Origin: Escherichia phage T4_ev151
Direction: 5' to 3' (one strand)
Sequence record: LR597660
Length of the DNA: 64,000 bases
The notes beneath the pieces were generated by a model. That model did no database searches and had not been told where the DNA came from. It saw nothing but the letters and a program-made list of their open reading frames with translations. The position numbers and the translations under genes were made by a program. Positions 727 to 22,869 of this stretch are shown piece after piece (positions within the stretch are counted from its first letter, which is position 1; every line of letters begins with the position of its first letter).

Positions 727-1742
727 TGTGTTGCCTCTACATATAGCTGATTTGCATATTGAATAAGTGCTTCACGGTCAGAATCGGTGATGTCTGGAAT
801 TGCATTAATGTATTCTTCCATCAACGTCTGAAGAGATTGAACTTCAACCTCTTCGCTGTCATCTGACTCGACAGAGTTATCAATCTTTGACACAACTCGT
901 AATGAATGCACAACTTTCTCTAGTTCAGATTCGAACTTCGTCAGATTTTTGTCTACTTCAGTTACTATAACACGTACTGATAGATTTGTAAAATCTTTAT
1001 AGTCAATTTTTCCTTTAAATGGATAATGAATTCTACGATGCCAGGTAGTATTATTTGGAATAAATTCCATTCGTTCTGTTTCTGTATCAAACATCCAGAA
1101 CCCACGAGGGTCATTCTCGTCACCTGCTGTTAGTGTCCATGGTGTCCCAATATATCTGACGTTAGCAGCCTCAGAAATAGTATGGAAGTGACCAGACCAC
1201 ACTTCTTTATAAGTCTTAAGGAAATCAGGTTCAAGACCATGAGATTTCATTCCTTTATAAAAATAAAATCCATTCAGTTCCCAGTGACCAACACAAAAAG
1301 AAGCAGATGAAGTTTTGATATGCTCAAGAATTTCACCAGTATTTTCTTCACACATCCAAGGAATTAAATCAATTAAACATCCTTCAAAATCTACTGTAGT
1401 AGGCTTATCATATACTTTAACATTAGGATATTTAGCCAAAAGCTCAGTAGAGGCATTTGGATGCATTACATTTTTATAGTGGAGATCGTGATTTCCTACA
1501 ATAGTATGTAATGTGATTCCAGCACCATCAAGCATTTGAACTATTTCACGGGCAAACTCCATAGTTTTATGCGTGATTGCTTTTCGCACATCAAAAATAT
1601 CACCATATTGAATCCATACAGTAATTCCATTTTTCTTAGAATATTCTATCGCTTGTTTAATTCCATCAATTTGAATACCGCGAATCCACTCATCATCAGC
1701 TTTAACGCCTAAATGCCAATCACCTAAATTTAAAATTTTCAT
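723..1742 (-). CDS. 47: Recombination endonuclease subunit gp47 (Mre11/SbcD-like)
   Basis: 339 aa; calcineurin-like phosphoesterase motifs GDWHLG, GDIFD, GNHD; T4 gene order. Confidence 0.95.
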   Translation of the reverse strand: MKILNLGDWHLGVKADDEWIRGIQIDGIKQAIEYSKKNGITVWIQYGDIFDVRKAITHKTMEFAREIVQMLDGAGITLHTIVGNHDLHYKNVMHPNASTELLAKYPNVKVYDKPTTVDFEGCLIDLIPWMCEENTGEILEHIKTSSASFCVGHWELNGFYFYKGMKSHGLEPDFLKTYKEVWSGHFHTISEAANVRYIGTPWTLTAGDENDPRGFWMFDTETERMEFIPNNTTWHRRIHYPFKGKIDYKDFTNLSVRVIVTEVDKNLTKFESELEKVVHSLRVVSKIDNSVESDDSEEVEVQSLQTLMEEYINAIPDITDSDREALIQYANQLYVEATQ

Positions 1743-1879
1743 ATATCAAGAACCGTCATTGAAATGCAAAATAAAATTATTGAAATAAACCCATCTGGTG
1801 TGCTAAAGAAACCAATCCAGCATGCTCTAGTGAATAGATAAAATGCAAGAAAAAGTATCACATATCCAAGAAATATCAT
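1739..1879 (-). CDS. Small hydrophobic protein (47.1 position), not in ORF track
   Basis: 46 codons MIFLGYVILFLAFYLFTRACWIGFFSTPDGFISIILFCISMTVLDI; GGAG SD 9 nt upstream; stop overlaps gene 47 ATG (ATGA). Confidence 0.45.
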   Translation of the reverse strand: MIFLGYVILFLAFYLFTRACWIGFFSTPDGFISIILFCISMTVLDI

Positions 1880-1902
1880 TATATCAAACTCCGTATAAAG
1901 CT

Positions 1903-1920
1903 AAAGGGCCGAAGCCCTTT
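1903..1920 (-). terminator. GGGC-UUCG-GCCC tetraloop hairpin just downstream of a-gt stop
   Basis: Inverted repeat aaagggc/gcccttt with CGAA/UUCG loop; U-rich flank is interrupted. Confidence 0.4.
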
Positions 1921-3121
1921 ATTTTGTAATAATGTCAAACTGTTCTTTAAAGCAGAAGCTTGAATCTTGATGCTGATACAAAAATTCATATGCTTTTTCT
2001 CGCTCACGGTCATAAAGAGCTCGGTCAGATGACAGTTCTTTAATACGTTCAAATGTTGATTCCATATCATTTTCATCAAACCAAATGATACCGCTATCAT
2101 GCGAGGTCAAAGGAGTATTATCAACACGGAATTTTAAATTTTCGCCAGTAGATTTCCAAAATACCGGAATTGTTCCACATGCACCAAGCTCGAGATGAGT
2201 ATATTCTAAAGAGCGCTGTAGATATTTTTTATCCAACTTACTCAGCTGATAACCAAATCCGGATTTACTCATGCGTTCAAGCATTTCGCTATTTACATAA
2301 CGGTCAAGAATTTGCGTTGGCAAATTAGGAGCAATTTTAATTTGGTCTACTTGATGAAGACGATAATACTCATATGGAATTCCTTTTTCTTTAATAGGAA
2401 TGAACGCTGGAGAACGTTCCAGACCTTCCATAATAGTACTTAGTCCTGCAGGTTTAAGATGTTTTTCGTGAAAATCAAACATCTGATAAAAACCTTTCCA
2501 TGTAGTCGTACGACCAATCCAACGGTTGATATTCATGTTAATTTCAGAAACATCTTTCCAGTAGGTTGATCGAACCTTCGCAATATCCATAGGAGGCTGA
2601 AAGTTATATACGGTCGGTGCTTCTTCAATATCATCAAACAGAGAAACAGTTTCCGGATACCATTCTTTCATCAGAACTTTATTAAAATCACCATTATCAG
2701 AATGGCTAAAAATAACATCAGCTCGACGAACAGTTTCTTCTAATCCCAAATTTCGACGCAAAGAAAGAGAAGAATGGTCATGTTGATAAACTACAACACG
2801 AACCGAAGGTTTAATGTTATCAATAATTTTTTTATAGTTATTAATAGTGTCTTCTTCAACCGAAGTAGCAGGAACTGAATTGATAATTAGAATATCACAA
2901 TCATTTACCAGCTTAAGTGTTTTATCATATTCTTTTGCCAATAAAACCGGAATTGAAAATGATTTATAATCATGCGCGCAATTACGAGTAAATGATTTAT
3001 CTTTAGCATAAACCAAAGTTACTTCATGACCATTCTTAATAAACCAATCACGTTGCTCAAGAGAAAATTTAGTTACACCACAACCTTCAAGACCTCGAGC
3101 CATAAAAATACATACTTTCAT
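1919..3121 (-). CDS. a-gt: DNA alpha-glucosyltransferase
   Basis: 400 aa, near-identical to recalled T4 AGT (MxxCIFMARGLEGCGVTKFSLEQRDWFIKNGHEVTLVYAKDKSF...). Confidence 0.95.
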   Translation of the reverse strand: MKVCIFMARGLEGCGVTKFSLEQRDWFIKNGHEVTLVYAKDKSFTRNCAHDYKSFSIPVLLAKEYDKTLKLVNDCDILIINSVPATSVEEDTINNYKKIIDNIKPSVRVVVYQHDHSSLSLRRNLGLEETVRRADVIFSHSDNGDFNKVLMKEWYPETVSLFDDIEEAPTVYNFQPPMDIAKVRSTYWKDVSEINMNINRWIGRTTTWKGFYQMFDFHEKHLKPAGLSTIMEGLERSPAFIPIKEKGIPYEYYRLHQVDQIKIAPNLPTQILDRYVNSEMLERMSKSGFGYQLSKLDKKYLQRSLEYTHLELGACGTIPVFWKSTGENLKFRVDNTPLTSHDSGIIWFDENDMESTFERIKELSSDRALYDREREKAYEFLYQHQDSSFCFKEQFDIITK

Positions 3122-3364: not shown

Positions 3365-3568
3365 TCACAGTTGCCACCATTTTTTGACTTGATAAGAATC
3401 AACCCACACTTTCATATTAGGGTCTGCTCTTACAATAGGAGGATTAACTTCTTTAATTGAACTATCATGGTATTCTTTTTCAGAAATTTTCACACAAAGA
3501 TGACCATTCAAAGATTCAGTAAATCCTGCATTAATTTTAAGACGCTTGAATTTTACGTGTGTAAGCAT
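3365..3568 (-). CDS. Hypothetical protein
   Basis: Track ORF trimmed to ATG at 3568 (track start 3571 is TTG); GAGGA SD. Confidence 0.5.
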   Translation of the reverse strand: MLTHVKFKRLKINAGFTESLNGHLCVKISEKEYHDSSIKEVNPPIVRADPNMKVWVDSYQVKKWWQL

Positions 3569-11550: not shown

Positions 11551-11793
11551 TTATTCCTTAATTCCTAGTACTTGTTTAAAAGTCTCGTCGTAATCAAGAC
11601 TTTGGCCCGTTTGTTCTTTATGTTTGTATATAATATCACTTACTTCTGATAGCATATTTTTATATGAACGAGTTAAAGCAGATTTAAGCACGCTGTATCT
11701 ATCAGGAAATTTACCATGTTCATTATAATAAGCTATTGCTAATTCACGGACTGCCTTTTCAGCAGTCTCCATATATTCTTTACGCTTTGTCAT
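11551..11793 (-). CDS. Hypothetical protein (nrdC.1 position)
   Basis: ATG at 11793 with GAGAAGAA SD (track start is TTG). Confidence 0.5.
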
Positions 11794-16523: not shown

Positions 16524-17051
16524 TTATGCGAGTACCGTCTTTAACCGTTCTTCAAACTTCCGAAGAGTATTTTGGCGTTCAGCTCTTTGCTTTTTGTAAG
16601 TTTCAATACGCTCTGAAATGAGAGTGTATCGTTCATTTACTGATTCTTTCATAAAATCAGGAATTTCACGAGAAGCTTTAATCTCGTCAAATTTATCAAT
16701 AACAGCTTGCTCTTCAGCAATTAAGTTATCATACATCAAAATATCTTTCTTGATGAACTCAATATCTTCTTGAGTTACACGAGATAATTTAGATGCTTTA
16801 TCCTTTTTGTACTGTTCGTTAGTATCACGAGACCAGTGTAATGTACGATTTTTATTCGTATTTTTGTAAATTTCTACAATACCAATCTCATCGATAATAA
16901 CGATCCAATTCCAACGAGATTTGTAAATTTGTCCTCCATCAACCGTGATTTCACCTCCGATTGAGATGTCATTAAAGAACTTGCTTTGTGCTTCTGATTT
17001 AAATTTACCATCATTGTAATTTACCAGGTTGAAAATATCTTTAGCGTTCAT
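16524..17051 (-). CDS. Hypothetical protein
   Basis: ATG at 17051 with GGAGGAACAGAAA SD; track N-terminal extension translates the promoter. Confidence 0.55.
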   Translation of the reverse strand: MNAKDIFNLVNYNDGKFKSEAQSKFFNDISIGGEITVDGGQIYKSRWNWIVIIDEIGIVEIYKNTNKNRTLHWSRDTNEQYKKDKASKLSRVTQEDIEFIKKDILMYDNLIAEEQAVIDKFDEIKASREIPDFMKESVNERYTLISERIETYKKQRAERQNTLRKFEERLKTVLA

Positions 17052-19295: not shown

Positions 19296-20309
19296 TCATT
19301 TATAATAACTTCGGTGGTTTTCAAGATAGACCTTCTCAAGGAAGTCATCCCAGAAACTCATGTCTACTTTTTGCTGCATACCGTTCTTAGAAGCTTCAGT
19401 AGATGCTGCTTCTACTTGATCGACCACATCTTCCAAAAACTCTTGAACCGTTTTAAATGGATGTTTACCCAACTTCACGTCGAGAATAAATGGAGCATCT
19501 TGGAGTGGATAAACCAAGTCACCAGTTTTGTAAATTTCCAATAGTTGGAGTCCACCACGACAAGCATGACTCTGTGCTTTCCAGTCAATGCCCTCATTCG
19601 CTTCAGCCTTACGAGCGCGTTCACCGTATTCAGCATCTAATTTGTTCAGTGACTGCTTAAGCTCAATAAGAGAAAGCGTTGTCTGATATTTACGACCCAA
19701 CACTGTGTAAAACGTTTGTGGGCCTGTTTTCTCATGATTATGGAACACCCATTCACAGAATTCGTTTTCTGGAAGACGATGCTTAATATCTTCAACTTTA
19801 GTGCGACGCTGCTTAATAGAACCATCTTCTTGGTAATCAACCCATTGCTCGGGGATTTGATTAACTACTTTCAATACATCACGTAATGCAGCCAAACGAG
19901 AACCCTTGACACCGTATTTAGAAGCTTGCTTGCGGACATATCCTAAATAGGATTTCATGTTAGTCGTATAAAAACGAGAACGATTGTCTTGAATAAACTT
20001 CCACACATCAGGCAAATCAGATTTAACCACTAACTCAGGTGGAGTATGAAGCATATCTAATGCTACGGTTTCACCATCTGCTGCTAATTTAAAGAAATAC
20101 TTAAGACTGTATAGTTCATGGTCAATATCATCTTTAGTGTTTTTAGATGATGTGTTGTTGGTGTTTTTACTCATGTGCTCTTTGACGTTTCCGATAAGAA
20201 TATCGCGAGCAGGAGGAACAAAGATTTCTTTAAAATCTACATCAGATTCTGGGGTAGAAGTTCCATAAAGATGACTACCAAAATAGCTTTTCATTACTGT
20301 TTTCATCAT
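19296..20309 (-). CDS. Putative nucleotidyltransferase (Pol-beta superfamily fold)
   Basis: 337 aa; N-terminal GSHLYGTSTPESDVDF (G[GS]x9-13Dx[DE]) and downstream DMLH. Confidence 0.55.
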   Translation of the reverse strand: MMKTVMKSYFGSHLYGTSTPESDVDFKEIFVPPARDILIGNVKEHMSKNTNNTSSKNTKDDIDHELYSLKYFFKLAADGETVALDMLHTPPELVVKSDLPDVWKFIQDNRSRFYTTNMKSYLGYVRKQASKYGVKGSRLAALRDVLKVVNQIPEQWVDYQEDGSIKQRRTKVEDIKHRLPENEFCEWVFHNHEKTGPQTFYTVLGRKYQTTLSLIELKQSLNKLDAEYGERARKAEANEGIDWKAQSHACRGGLQLLEIYKTGDLVYPLQDAPFILDVKLGKHPFKTVQEFLEDVVDQVEAASTEASKNGMQQKVDMSFWDDFLEKVYLENHRSYYK

Positions 20310-20767
20310 TCAACCTTATATTCAATAACAGGACATACTTTAGCTTTACGAGCTTTTAAAAATTCAACAATAATCGATTTCTTGGGTTGAATAGGAGGTA
20401 AACCTTTATACGCCCTATCAATATTTTCTACGTGTAAAGCATAATCCTTTTTCCATTTATAATCTTTATATTTTTCACGCAAATGTGCAGGAATAACAAA
20501 TGAACCGATAATAAGTAAAACAACCAAAAGCGCAAGTATAAATGCCGATGGAAGAAGAGTCCATAAACTACCGAAAATAAGCCAACGTTGTAGGCTTTCT
20601 GCACAAATAATTGTTAGCCCTACGAGTATAGCACACCCAAAAATAGAAACGAAAAATGTAGGAATGGCAATAGACCAAAAATATGCGCATAGTGTCTTAG
20701 GTCGTTGCCATTCATCGTTAAACAATTTGAATAATTTATAGTGCCAAGAGTTTTCATTAATAATCAT
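20306..20767 (-). CDS. Integral membrane protein
   Basis: 153 aa, three or four hydrophobic helices. Confidence 0.55.
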   Translation of the reverse strand: MIINENSWHYKLFKLFNDEWQRPKTLCAYFWSIAIPTFFVSIFGCAILVGLTIICAESLQRWLIFGSLWTLLPSAFILALLVVLLIIGSFVIPAHLREKYKDYKWKKDYALHVENIDRAYKGLPPIQPKKSIIVEFLKARKAKVCPVIEYKVE

Positions 20768-20769
20768 AA

Positions 20770-21291
20770 CTATCCTTTCATTGAAGGCGTAACAGTTGTT
20801 AAATACTTAATCATAGCTTCAGCTTCTGATTTTGATAGTGAAATTTCTCCATTGTTTTGACGAATAGAAATAAAATCCGGATGACGGTCACCACCAGCTT
20901 TTAAAACACACATATAAGTATCAGTTTCATCTTCAATATCTGAAATGATTGAAGCAGTTCCACATGAATGTGGTTTTTGATAAATCAATACAGCTTTTCT
21001 TCCACCGTTTGACTGTTCATAAACTTTTAACACATCAAACAAATCACTTCTTTTATCAATAGCTAAAATGTTATTTTCATCTTCAATGTTAAATCCTTCG
21101 GATACTTCATAAAGTGTCACCCATAAATCGCCAATATCAATAACAGCGTTCACTTTTCCATGACTTTCAAGAGAATGACAAATTTTCTTGATTTCGTCAT
21201 AACTCATTTTAATAATATCATCTCCTTGAATAAGAAAGATGTCATTTTTAAATTCAACACGAATTAAACCACTTCCACTTGAAATAAACAT
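20770..21291 (-). CDS. Hypothetical protein (tandem paralog A)
   Basis: 173 aa; C-terminus SEAEAMIKYLTTVTPSMKG resembles neighbour. Confidence 0.55.
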   Translation of the reverse strand: MFISSGSGLIRVEFKNDIFLIQGDDIIKMSYDEIKKICHSLESHGKVNAVIDIGDLWVTLYEVSEGFNIEDENNILAIDKRSDLFDVLKVYEQSNGGRKAVLIYQKPHSCGTASIISDIEDETDTYMCVLKAGGDRHPDFISIRQNNGEISLSKSEAEAMIKYLTTVTPSMKG

Positions 21292-21297
21292 ATTTCC

Positions 21298-21855
21298 TCA
21301 CTTTGAAATCATAGTTGGAATGACAGAATCAAGATAAGTCTTTAGCGCAATAGCTTCGTCTTTGGTAAATGTGACAATATGTGATCGAAAATCGTCGATT
21401 TGGCGAATAGTTAAGACATCTCCCTCTTCATAACATTTTGATACATTTAAAAGAGTTTCATCATTCTGATTGCAAGAGTTAGTAATAATAGCATTGCAAT
21501 TTTTGAGCCATTTTAAACTATGTTTTCTTTCATTAGAATAATAAAAATATTTAATCTTAGCTATAAAACTATCCCAATGGATAACTGATAAACACATTGA
21601 CTCACTTTGAATATTAAATCCTGGGCATGAAGAATAAAAATGAATTTTGTGCTCATCATTGATGCTTACTATTTTATCAGTATAAGGATATTCAATTTGG
21701 GTTAAATGAATGATTTCACTAGGCGTAAAATATAGCATATCGTCTTCTTGCGTCAAACGATACATGTTATTTACTTTTTCTATAGCCAATTCACCAAAAA
21801 GCGGACTAACTTCTAATACTAATCGTTTCATATTGATTCTCTTCGACTCACTCAC
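21298..21855 (-). CDS. Hypothetical protein (tandem paralog B)
   Basis: 185 aa; C-terminus DEAIALKTYLDSVIPTMISK; GTG start with strong AAGGAG SD. Confidence 0.55.
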   Translation of the reverse strand: MSESKRINMKRLVLEVSPLFGELAIEKVNNMYRLTQEDDMLYFTPSEIIHLTQIEYPYTDKIVSINDEHKIHFYSSCPGFNIQSESMCLSVIHWDSFIAKIKYFYYSNERKHSLKWLKNCNAIITNSCNQNDETLLNVSKCYEEGDVLTIRQIDDFRSHIVTFTKDEAIALKTYLDSVIPTMISK

Positions 21856-21990
21856 AATTACATACTCCTTTGAATAATATCAATAATGTTGTTCACCAGA
21901 TTATAAGTAAACATTGGGTAATTATATTGAATCATTACATACACAACAAACAAAACTTTCATTCTCTTCTCCTTGACAGTTGACAAGATT

Positions 21991-22020
21991 ACTATACCAT
22001 AACCTTGCCAACTTGTAAAC
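21991..22020 (-). promoter_or_regulatory. T4-type early promoter
   Basis: Minus strand GTTTACA, 18 nt, TGGTATAGT. Confidence 0.5.
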
Positions 22021-22185
22021 CGTTAAATGTTGTTTTCAATAAAATTTTGAAGCTTTGTGTGAGCATCAACCATGATTTTCATTTCTTCTTTGGCGAAAGC
22101 TGTACCTCTTTCCCGAGCAGAATACTCATAGTCAGAAACTGCATTAGCATATTCTTCAATTAGCTTCATTAAAAACATCTGCTTT

Positions 22186-22380
22186 TCAGTTTTCATTATT
22201 CCACCTAATCATTTCAAGATATTGAACTAACTTAGCTTTAGATTTATCCAAATCCCTTTTAGCTGATTCTATACCATCGTATGAATATCCTTCACAATGC
22301 TCAACTGCTAATTGGTATGAATCTATTTCAATATCATGCGCTAATTTAATGATTTTTTCAAACTGTTCGCGTGTTAGCAT
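22186..22380 (-). CDS. Hypothetical protein
   Basis: 64-aa ORF, ATG start. Confidence 0.5.
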   Translation of the reverse strand: MLTREQFEKIIKLAHDIEIDSYQLAVEHCEGYSYDGIESAKRDLDKSKAKLVQYLEMIRWNNEN

Positions 22381-22382
22381 AA

Positions 22383-22586
22383 TTAAACTCTCGTATTATG
22401 ATCGATAATTTCATCAAGAAACATATCTAACGCTTCTAAAGCATTATCAACTTTAGTTTCAAGTTCATCAATGCCTTTATTTGCAATGCCTGATGAAAAC
22501 CAAGCAAAGTCACTAAGTTCCTCGTCTGCTTTACGAATTAAAGCTACCAATTCCTTAATTTTATCAGCTTGTTCGATACTAATCAT
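22383..22586 (-). CDS. Hypothetical protein
   Basis: ATG 22586 with GGTGGAATA SD (track GTG 22622). Confidence 0.45.
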   Translation of the reverse strand: MISIEQADKIKELVALIRKADEELSDFAWFSSGIANKGIDELETKVDNALEALDMFLDEIIDHNTRV

Positions 22587-22774
22587 TATTCCACCACATA
22601 TGAAAGAGAGAATATTGCACACGCCATGTGAGTTGCAGCTTCATCACACATATTATAACGTTTCTTAAGAAATTCTACAAGTTCTTCACTAGTAACTTCA
22701 TCCATGTCGACGAAAAAATCACCATTAATGATGACGTAGATATTTCCTTCTTGATTGAGTGCTTCAATTTTCAT
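22586..22774 (-). CDS. Hypothetical small protein
   Basis: ATG 22774 with GAGGAG SD; track extension translates promoter. Confidence 0.5.
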
Positions 22775-22842: not shown

Positions 22843-22864
22843 AAAAAAGTCTCCCGAAGGAGAC
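22843..22864 (-). terminator. Rho-independent terminator
   Basis: Minus RNA GUCUCC-UUCG-GGAGAC then U6, after the stop at 22870. Confidence 0.65.
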
Positions 22865-22869
22865 TAACG

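Follow-up and report, generated by a model that had tools for sequence, protein, structure and literature searches.

Two adjacent minus-strand genes in the 64,000-nucleotide stretch of Escherichia phage T4_ev151 analysed here (LR597660, referred to as the window) are almost certainly a paralog pair of the y05I/MobD.1 family. In the reading preferred here, their products of 173 and 185 aa may be non-enzymatic, dimerising accessory factors of a PC4/PUR-like kind, which would give the phage a conditional advantage.

A tandem pair of full-length paralogs

A sequence-only reading of this DNA had proposed a tandem paralog pair from the similar C-terminal tails of the two ORFs. Both ORFs are present as claimed and the quoted tails are right. 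Pairwise alignment by BLASTP gave 26% identity and 46% positives over 175 columns (E=5e-8, single comparison), indicating that the similarity is full-length and far beyond chance. The alignment spans the whole proteins instead of being confined to the terminal 20 residues, and the same two-domain architecture is found in both, so that paralogy is better supported than first proposed. Pfam assigns T4_y05I_N (PF24449, gathering cut-off 24.9 bits) and T4_y05I_C (PF24448, 27 bits) to the 173-aa protein with 118.3 and 82.7 bits, and to the 185-aa protein with 132.3 and 76.0 bits; the respective E-values are 2.5e-34 and 1.1e-38 for the N-domain, and 2.5e-23 and 2.9e-21 for the C-domain. Both proteins also match phrog_1502 (6.5e-67 and 3.9e-80). 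The tail is the best-conserved signature of the family, [FL][TS]K.EA.AL..YL..VIP[ST]MK. The two genes thus show each of the properties by which we define a tandem pair: they are adjacent (6 nt apart), on the same strand, homologous over their full length, intact and under selection. No further y05I copy was found in the 64-kb window by six-frame hmmsearch with the full, N-domain and C-domain profiles.

The window comes from a T4-like phage (Tequatrovirus), and the pair lies in the nrdC-to-tk early region, where every gene is on the minus strand. The gene order of RB32 at this position is nrdC.11, RB32ORF096c, RB32ORF097c, mobD.1, mobD.2, mobD.2a, mobD.3, mobD.4 and mobD.5, followed by rI.-1, rI, rI.1 and tk. 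Based on the corresponding genes in this annotation, the upstream ORF is mobD.1 and the downstream ORF, hereafter copy 2, is RB32ORF097c (Table 1). The GenBank notes of RB32 describe RB32ORF096c as 'replaces mobD' and RB32ORF097c as 'similar to mobD.1'. Paralogy of the two genes is therefore already on record, in the RB32 and RB14 GenBank annotations and in the Pfam and PHROG families. The new details are the mobD cassette scar in T4, the T2 frameshifts, a rare fusion and a three-unit architecture with a weak PUR match. The genes mobD.2, mobD.1, copy 2 and the membrane-protein gene are tightly packed, each with a separate Shine-Dalgarno (SD) sequence. The membrane-protein gene, which is not a y05I family member, begins 2 nt past the stop codon of copy 2 (TAG-TT-ATG).

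Table 1. Features of the y05I locus, in positions of the window
Feature	Position	Strand	Remarks
mobD.1 orthologue (y05I family)	21298-21855	-	185 aa from GTG 21855; alternative 177 aa from ATG 21831
mobD.1 orthologue domains	N-domain about 21532-21822; C-domain about 21310-21519	-	Pfam PF24449, PF24448
Second y05I paralog (copy 2)	20770-21291	-	173 aa from ATG; = RB32ORF097c and bas37_0208
Copy 2 domains	N-domain about 21007-21288; C-domain about 20779-20988	-	Pfam PF24449, PF24448
GAGG upstream of copy 2	21299-21296	-	Overlaps mobD.1 stop codon
AAGGAG SD of mobD.1	21870-21865	-	9 nt before GTG 21855-21853; within mobD.2 3' end
mobD.2 small ORF	21858-21962	-	34 aa from ATG; = RB32ORF099c mobD.2
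AAGGAG of mobD.2	21974-21969	-	Sequence read
Predicted membrane protein gene, 153 aa	20306-20767	-	= RB32ORF096c; phrog_944 'membrane protein'
Candidate promoter (G)TTTACA, 17 nt spacer, TGgTATAGT	22019-21991	-	Upstream of mobD.2/mobD.1; consensus scan

Many orthologues carry the RefSeq product name 'molybdopterin-guanine dinucleotide biosynthesis protein MobD'. This name is most likely a mislabel caused by a gene-name collision: searches for a molybdopterin-biosynthesis or HNH domain in the y05I proteins returned none, Pfam finding the y05I domains only, and NCBIfam gave nothing for the two proteins. The mobD gene of the T4 literature, which codes for an HNH homing endonuclease, is a neighbour unrelated to them. 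A single paper has 'mobD.1' in its main text, where it labels an insertion site, and 'y05I' occurs in nothing relevant. The analysis thus exposes a widespread mislabel, in addition to arguing for an upstream start codon of mobD.1.

The start codon of mobD.1

The sequence-only reading had placed the start of the upstream gene at a GTG codon preceded by a strong AAGGAG SD, which conflicts with the internal ATG annotated as the mobD.1 start in RB32, Bas36 and Bas37. Comparison of the aligned 5' ends of 14 loci revealed four configurations. The window, RB32, L007 and L008 share AAGGAGTATGTAATT-GTG-AGT-GAG-...-ATG-AAA-CGA. The T2 configuration is like that of the window, with ATG exactly at the GTG position. 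In T4 the 5' end reads ATG ATG AGC GAG GCG AAA CGA, where GCG replaces the internal ATG; its N-terminus M-S-E matches that of the window, and the official gene has 546 nt (181 aa). Where another gene, a 'Phage_tudor' ORF, lies upstream, the 5' end reads AAAAAGGATTAAT-ATG-AAA-CGA and the start is at the internal-ATG position. These configurations suggest that the core protein begins at KRLVLEV and that the N-terminal extension is variable. T2 and T4 have the same SD ahead of the ATG with which their mobD.1 begins. The comparison with T2 and T4 therefore favours the proposed GTG, which appears to be the better-supported start for the configuration of the window.

Distribution and history of the locus

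Megablast with positions 20200-22100 as the query matched 508 phage records, of which 363 cover at least 80% of it; nearly all are Tequatrovirus, with Shigella phage SHFML-26 at the top (98.8%). The pair itself, sought in related genomes, was found in about 430 sequenced phages. Genes of the mobD.1 type occur in 728 phage records, RB69-like and JS10/Dhaka-like phages among them, and a divergent allele (P0010) is 57% identical. A profile search of 1.84 billion representative proteins returned only 30 clusters at E<=1e-3; those traced to their source belong to T4-like phages of enterobacteria, and many consist of the C-domain alone, with 67-87 aa. One cluster, the 1572-aa Bacteroidetes-type repeat protein P0056 with 13 matched stretches, was judged a spurious match.

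T4 carries a single copy, and its alignment with the window suggests how the second was lost. Homology extends across mobD.1 and the intergenic SD into copy 2, where it takes in six codons (ATG TTT ATT TCA AGT GGA) before it stops; it restarts about 10 nt upstream of nrdC.11. The gap is filled by the 259-aa HNH gene mobD, known as a free-standing HNH homing endonuclease gene between nrdC.11 and mobD.1 (PMC2988022). The aligned ends indicate that the mobD cassette replaced the equivalent of positions 20318-21272, comprising codons 7-173 of copy 2 and the whole membrane-protein gene. Since a remnant of copy 2 was left behind, the two-copy state predates the T4 arrangement. In neighbour-joining trees (midpoint root, low resolution), the mobD.1 orthologues of several genera form a clade that excludes copy 2, a placement suggesting that the duplication is old or that copy 2 evolves faster; a recent duplication was rejected on the same placement.

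The two copies have also been fused in nature. The 179-aa protein P0011 joins the mobD.1 N-domain to the copy 2 C-domain, with the crossover at the shared GATGAAACT, and is the sole y05I gene at the locus in four metagenomic contigs. Among 491 matching phage records, the fusion was found in one piece only in Shigella phage SP21535. The locus documents a history in which a homing-endonuclease cassette erased the second paralog of T4 and short-homology recombination fuses the copies.

The T4 arrangement bears on a further reading, in which the pair and the downstream 153-aa membrane protein act together as a module, for instance to exclude superinfection or to modify the envelope, with the y05I proteins as regulators or adaptors. 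In its favour, copy 2 and the membrane gene are tightly coupled, at a spacing of two nucleotides; the chimera loci likewise have the membrane gene behind the fusion; and T4 lost copy 2 and the membrane gene together. However, this joint loss is one event, a single cassette replacement, and is therefore not evidence of co-dependence. In addition, T4 retains mobD.1 without the membrane protein, and C-domain genes stand alone in other genera. Reading of the y05I sequences gave no evident signal peptide or transmembrane segment, and the AlphaFold2 (AF2) models of both paralogs are soluble beta/alpha folds. A common membrane module is thus quite improbable.

Selection, expression and dispensability

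Both genes are real and under purifying selection. Among intact copies, pooled pN/pS from Nei-Gojobori counts is 0.16 for copy 2 (n=7) and 0.20 for mobD.1 (n=6). These values bear on the reading of copy 2, or of both genes, as a decaying and functionless remnant whose tail reflects recent common ancestry or chance. Decay does occur: in T2, mobD.1 and copy 2 are both frameshifted, with three gaps each at 90-95% nucleotide identity, and the annotation splits the pair into five small ORFs; mobD.1 of RB14 is truncated by a 1-nt gap and annotated with 127 aa; copy 2 is replaced in T4, and a laboratory phenotype is absent. Against this stand the pN/pS values of the intact copies, the 433 phage records that carry the 173-aa type with at least 90% identity, and the detection of the T4 MobD.1 protein. 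Moreover, retention of both domains and of the motif by paralogs with just 26% identity requires long-term selection. The remnant reading is effectively refuted by the selection analysis, and we give it hardly any weight.

T4 MobD.1 (P39240, Y05I_BPT4) belongs to the early-RNA and early-protein class, and its mass-spectrometry intensities climb from the first minutes (PMC9697503 supplement). The site upstream of mobD.2 in the window has 10/12 consensus matches and an extended -10 TG, in keeping with reports that T4 mobD.1 is transcribed in the 'early' class. It is called only a candidate promoter because the count of promoter-like sites in the region was not above shuffle expectation in the consensus scan.

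Both copies are dispensable on laboratory E. coli. Knock-down of T4 mobD.1 by CRISPRi-ART was scored 'Not Fit' (PMC11879866 supplement). In the supplementary HIDEN-SEQ transposon maps, T4 mobD.1 is classed 'Non-essential' with 58/59 TA sites hit, as are bas37_0208 (36/39) and bas37_0209 (54/56), whose products are 97.7% and 97.2% identical to those of the window (bioRxiv 10.1101/2025.11.20.689424). Two comparisons of K-12 with a clinical isolate from that supplement gave log2 fold changes of +0.18/+0.06 and +0.05/-0.07, each at an adjusted p of 1 (bioRxiv 10.1101/2025.11.20.689424). In these two comparisons neither paralog is depleted and the single knock-outs show no phenotype. Redundancy between the paralogs may mask phenotypes in single-gene phage fitness screens.

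Predicted three-unit structure and internal duplication

The AlphaFold2 model of mobD.1 (alignment A2) has a mean pLDDT of 91.1 and a pTM of 0.65, and shows three units: beta4-alpha at residues 3-45, beta4-alpha at 53-101 and beta5-alpha at 105-173. By DSSP, unit 1 consists of strands 3-9, 13-20, 23-28 and 31-35 followed by helix 37-45; unit 2 of strands 53-56, 62-65, 72-75 and 80-83 followed by helix 86-101; and unit 3 of five strands followed by helix 157-173. Units 1 and 2 are thus predicted with high confidence to form the N-terminal domain, and unit 3 the C-terminal domain with the conserved helix at its end. The copy 2 model has the elements in the same order, with a weaker C-domain.

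Profile-profile comparison by hhalign of unit 1 (..VNNMYRLTQEDDMLYFTPSEIIHLTQ..) with unit 3 (..GDVLTIRQIDD..VTFTKDEAIALKTYL..) gave a probability of 93.5 and E=2.4e-7, and the score of 34.2 exceeds the maximum of 19.9 in 400 column shuffles. The homology was repeated with independently built alignments (E=3e-5). Units 1 and 3 are therefore detectably homologous, suggesting that the y05I protein arose by internal duplication; similarity of unit 2 to either was undetectable by the same comparison.

Resemblance to the PUR/PC4-like fold

In the PC4-like class, a type I domain is composed of bbbba-linker-bbbba, whereas a type II domain is a dimer of one bbbba unit with swapped helices, and a lone repeat is considered unlikely to fold (PMC7549692). 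The topology of the mobD.1 model fits this definition, with one extra strand in unit 3. Foldseek matched the model to Pur-alpha repeat III (5fgo) with a probability of 1.00, TM values of 0.69-0.77 by target and E=0.06-0.12, superposing with an rmsd of 1.3-1.6 Å over 52 columns. Further matches were human PURA repeat III (8chw; probability 1.0, TM 0.66) and Pur-alpha repeats I-II (3k44; probability 0.97, with E=0.028 and TM 0.38 for 3k44_B). The Pur-alpha matches were the only ones with good superposition in this PDB search, in which no match reached E<=1e-3 and the Pur-alpha E-values were 0.03-0.12. For copy 2, whose model is of lower confidence, PUR structures were absent from the best 50 Foldseek matches.

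The best Foldseek E-values went to the C-terminal domain of Ctf4 (E=1.3e-3), which was discarded on TM values of 0.18/0.08 and an rmsd of 18 Å; these matches look like propeller blades aligned to the serial beta4 units. LolA, CRABP, the Polo-box domain, Spt5 and Mediator, matched by the weaker model, were rejected on the same grounds. The BFVD search recovered members of the y05I family and, as weak matches, unannotated proteins of Bacillus phages.

Sequence profiles did not recover the relationship. A Pfam scan of 23 y05I members at E<=10 found no PurA, PC4 or Whirly family HMM, the only matches being y05I_N, y05I_C and a weak one to DUF7189. PDB profile searches with the whole protein and each domain found no PUR, PC4 or Whirly chain at E<=10; hits to CsoS1D, an antitoxin and a superantigen (E 0.2 or worse) were taken as noise. 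Judged from the models, the chances that the y05I proteins have a PC4/PUR-like fold appear evenly balanced. Such a topology probably explains the Pfam name of PF24449/PF24448, 'y05I-like putative transcription factor'.

Proposed function

We propose a layout resembling that of Pur-alpha and other PC4-like proteins, with the N-domain as a PC4-like domain of the intramolecular 'type I' and the single C-terminal unit as one half of a 'type II' domain, which would need a second copy. The C-terminal unit, including the tail helix, would then serve as the dimerisation element. Its pairing would produce homodimers or heterodimers of the two paralogs; for Pur-alpha, co-immunoprecipitation has led to the suggestion of heterodimers with its paralogs (PMC7549692). 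The dimer would bind a single-stranded nucleic-acid intermediate or a host protein, non-enzymatically, and the outcome would be a host- or defence-specific conditional advantage. The C-unit is modular, given the small stand-alone proteins of other T4-like phages and the natural N/C-domain fusion of the paralogs, and dimerisation through it, argued by analogy, is tentative and less likely than not. A nucleic-acid ligand, also proposed by analogy, seems rather unlikely. Family members are acidic, with a pI of 4.1-5.8 and, where both domains are present, a net charge between -3 and -22; the polar positions that are conserved mostly carry Asp, Glu or Gln. Such a composition is unusual for a nucleic-acid binder, and the acidity speaks for a protein ligand or for mimicry of nucleic acid rather than for plain nucleic-acid binding.

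The same acidity suits a different reading, in which the proteins are protein-binding host-takeover or anti-defence factors, acting as inhibitors or decoys of a host protein, and the PUR likeness is that of a generic small fold; duplication would give two specificities against target variants. Early expression of T4 mobD.1, non-essentiality on K-12 and repeated loss in laboratory phages agree with it. So does the faster divergence of the N-domains, which are 23% identical between the paralogs and 37-42% between genera, compared with 31% and 59-66% for the C-domains. The same hyperplastic region carries nrdC.1 (anti-Septu) and bas37_0203 (anti-Druantia III), as reported, each with a 99% orthologue in the window; by association only, these neighbours favour an accessory or counter-defence role for the y05I pair. 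However, this argument is guilt by association. PADLOC assigned the paralogs to 0 families, and they are neither depleted in the two HIDEN-SEQ clinical-isolate comparisons given above nor highlighted in that paper. As for the Druantia III inhibitor bas37_0203 itself, it was rejected as one of the paralogs: it lies at the nrdC.8 position and is unrelated to the y05I family (hhalign probability 0.3%). We regard the anti-defence reading as possible but not probable, and prefer dimerising PC4/PUR-like accessory factors.

A bolder version of the preferred reading makes y05I/MobD.1 a virus-specific counterpart of Pur-alpha, whose paralogs would heterodimerise through their C-units, bind or mimic ssDNA or RNA intermediates early in infection and could act as a conditionally required counter-defence or replication accessory. 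We consider this version speculative and improbable. Pur-alpha is the only protein reported with domains of the two types (I and II) in a 2020 review (PMC7549692). If the idea held, y05I would be the second protein type combining both PC4-like domain types in one chain, and redundancy of the paralogs would mask single-gene phenotypes. The analysis offers a testable structural hypothesis for one of the many early T4 genes that lack an assigned function: its product would be PC4/PUR-like, built of three units and dimerising through the C-unit.

Comparison with known systems

The closest known relative is T4 MobD.1 (phrog_1502), to which the mobD.1 product of the window is 87.5% identical (tblastn); the two domains are shared, and the gene likewise sits between mobD.2 and the nrdC.11 side. 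Copy 2 has the same two domains as well. Unlike T4, which has one copy only, the window has two, and its mobD.1 differs in the GTG start and five extra N-terminal codons. Copy 2 corresponds to RB32ORF097c and its counterparts in RB14, RB51 and Bas37 (bas37_0208), with 95-98% identity, the same place beside RB32ORF096c and no material difference. Proteins of phrog_7763 and phrog_10804, which match Pfam DUF7189 weakly and come from Klebsiella, Salmonella and Yersinia T4-like phages, have the C-terminal unit in common with the pair, including the motif ...FTK.EA.AL..YL..VIPTMK, but are without the N-terminal two-unit domain.

Comparison with the Pur-alpha/PC4-like class (PC4, Whirly/p24, MRP1/2, T5 PC4-like, YdbC) is at the level of predicted architecture. 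PUR repeats have about 60-70 aa, whereas the y05I units are shorter, at about 45-55 aa, and y05I unit 3 is five-stranded. The y05I proteins also differ in being acidic, in having no sequence similarity to the class and in Foldseek E-values that are not significant. Similar to Pur-alpha, they are predicted to have three beta4-alpha units, of which the first two are joined, and the third is separable and exists alone elsewhere. The likeness to Pur-alpha is a resemblance in possible working and not family membership.

A natural fusion and decayed copies of the y05I paralogs

A single gene that joins the two y05I paralogs was found in four metagenomic contigs (L002-L005) and in a Shigella phage. 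The fused protein, P0011, combines the N-domain of mobD.1 with the C-domain of the second paralog, and the crossover lies at GATGAAACT, a sequence common to both paralogs. The fusion is the sole y05I gene at these loci and is rare, being found in 1 of 491 matching phage isolates. Both paralogs are frameshifted pseudogenes in phage T2, and mobD.1 of phage RB14 carries a 1-nt gap. T4 retains a remnant of the 173-aa paralog directly before the mobD cassette: its Shine-Dalgarno sequence and its six opening codons (MFISSG). Window 20318-21272, which holds the remainder of this paralog and the 153-aa membrane-protein gene, is replaced there by mobD.

Coordinates of the features at the y05I locus, in its neighbourhood and in related phages
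Feature	Location	Strand	Remarks
P0011 fused gene, metagenomic contig	L002:4001-4540 (also L003-L005)		179 aa
P0011 fused gene, Shigella phage SP21535	PQ615101.1, 85961-86500
y05I paralogs, phage T2	L013 (PV648364) 940-2019		frameshifted; annotated as five small ORFs
mobD.1, phage RB14	L011 762-1294		1-nt gap; annotation gives 127 aa
Remnant of 173-aa paralog, T4	L006 (T4 GT7, KJ477686, reverse complement) about 3538-3556		equals window 21273-21291
mobD.2a	window 22023-22196	-	Pfam DUF7438
mobD.3	window 22186-22380	-	Pfam DUF7438
mobD.4	window 22383-22622	-	Pfam DUF7438
Terminator-like hairpin	window 22848-22865	-	AGTCTCC-TTCG-GGAGACT, then T-run
bas37_0203 orthologue	window 16527-17051	-	99.4% identical
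NrdC.1 orthologue	window 11554-11793	-	98.8% identical
seg-like homing-endonuclease ORF, RB32	L001 298-1017		between nrdC.9 and nrdC.10

Conservation and naming of mobD.1

Family alignments A1 and A2 revealed that the C-terminal ~45 residues of mobD.1 (window about 21301-21435), reading IRQIDD.R.HIVTFTKDEAIALKTYLDSVIPTMISK, are nearly identical between Tequatrovirus and RB69-like phages, versus just 37-42% identity in the N-domain. This near-identity could reflect either very strong constraint or mosaic recombination. Orthologues of mobD.1 (window 21298-21855) are named 'molybdopterin-guanine dinucleotide biosynthesis protein MobD' in many RefSeq genomes, such as NC_027983, NC_031011 and NC_054925. 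Neither Pfam nor NCBIfam gave any support for this name, which appears to stem from a clash of gene names with T4 mobD, a mobile HNH endonuclease.

The neighbouring region

The products of mobD.2a, mobD.3 and mobD.4 matched Pfam DUF7438 with E-values of 6e-16 to 5e-18, and a PHROG search gave weak matches to a 'helicase loader' family. The three genes constitute a second tandem paralog set in the window. Further DUF7438 genes occur in related loci on either side of tk (the tk.1/tk.2 positions) and upstream of mobD.1. The terminator-like hairpin sits between rI.-1 and mobD.5, right behind the rI.-1 stop (22870). The seg-like ORF of phage RB32 is one more endonuclease insertion within this hyperplastic region. 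The window also encodes close orthologues of bas37_0203 of phage Bas37, a reported Druantia type III inhibitor, and of NrdC.1, a reported Septu inhibitor (bioRxiv 10.1101/2025.11.20.689424).
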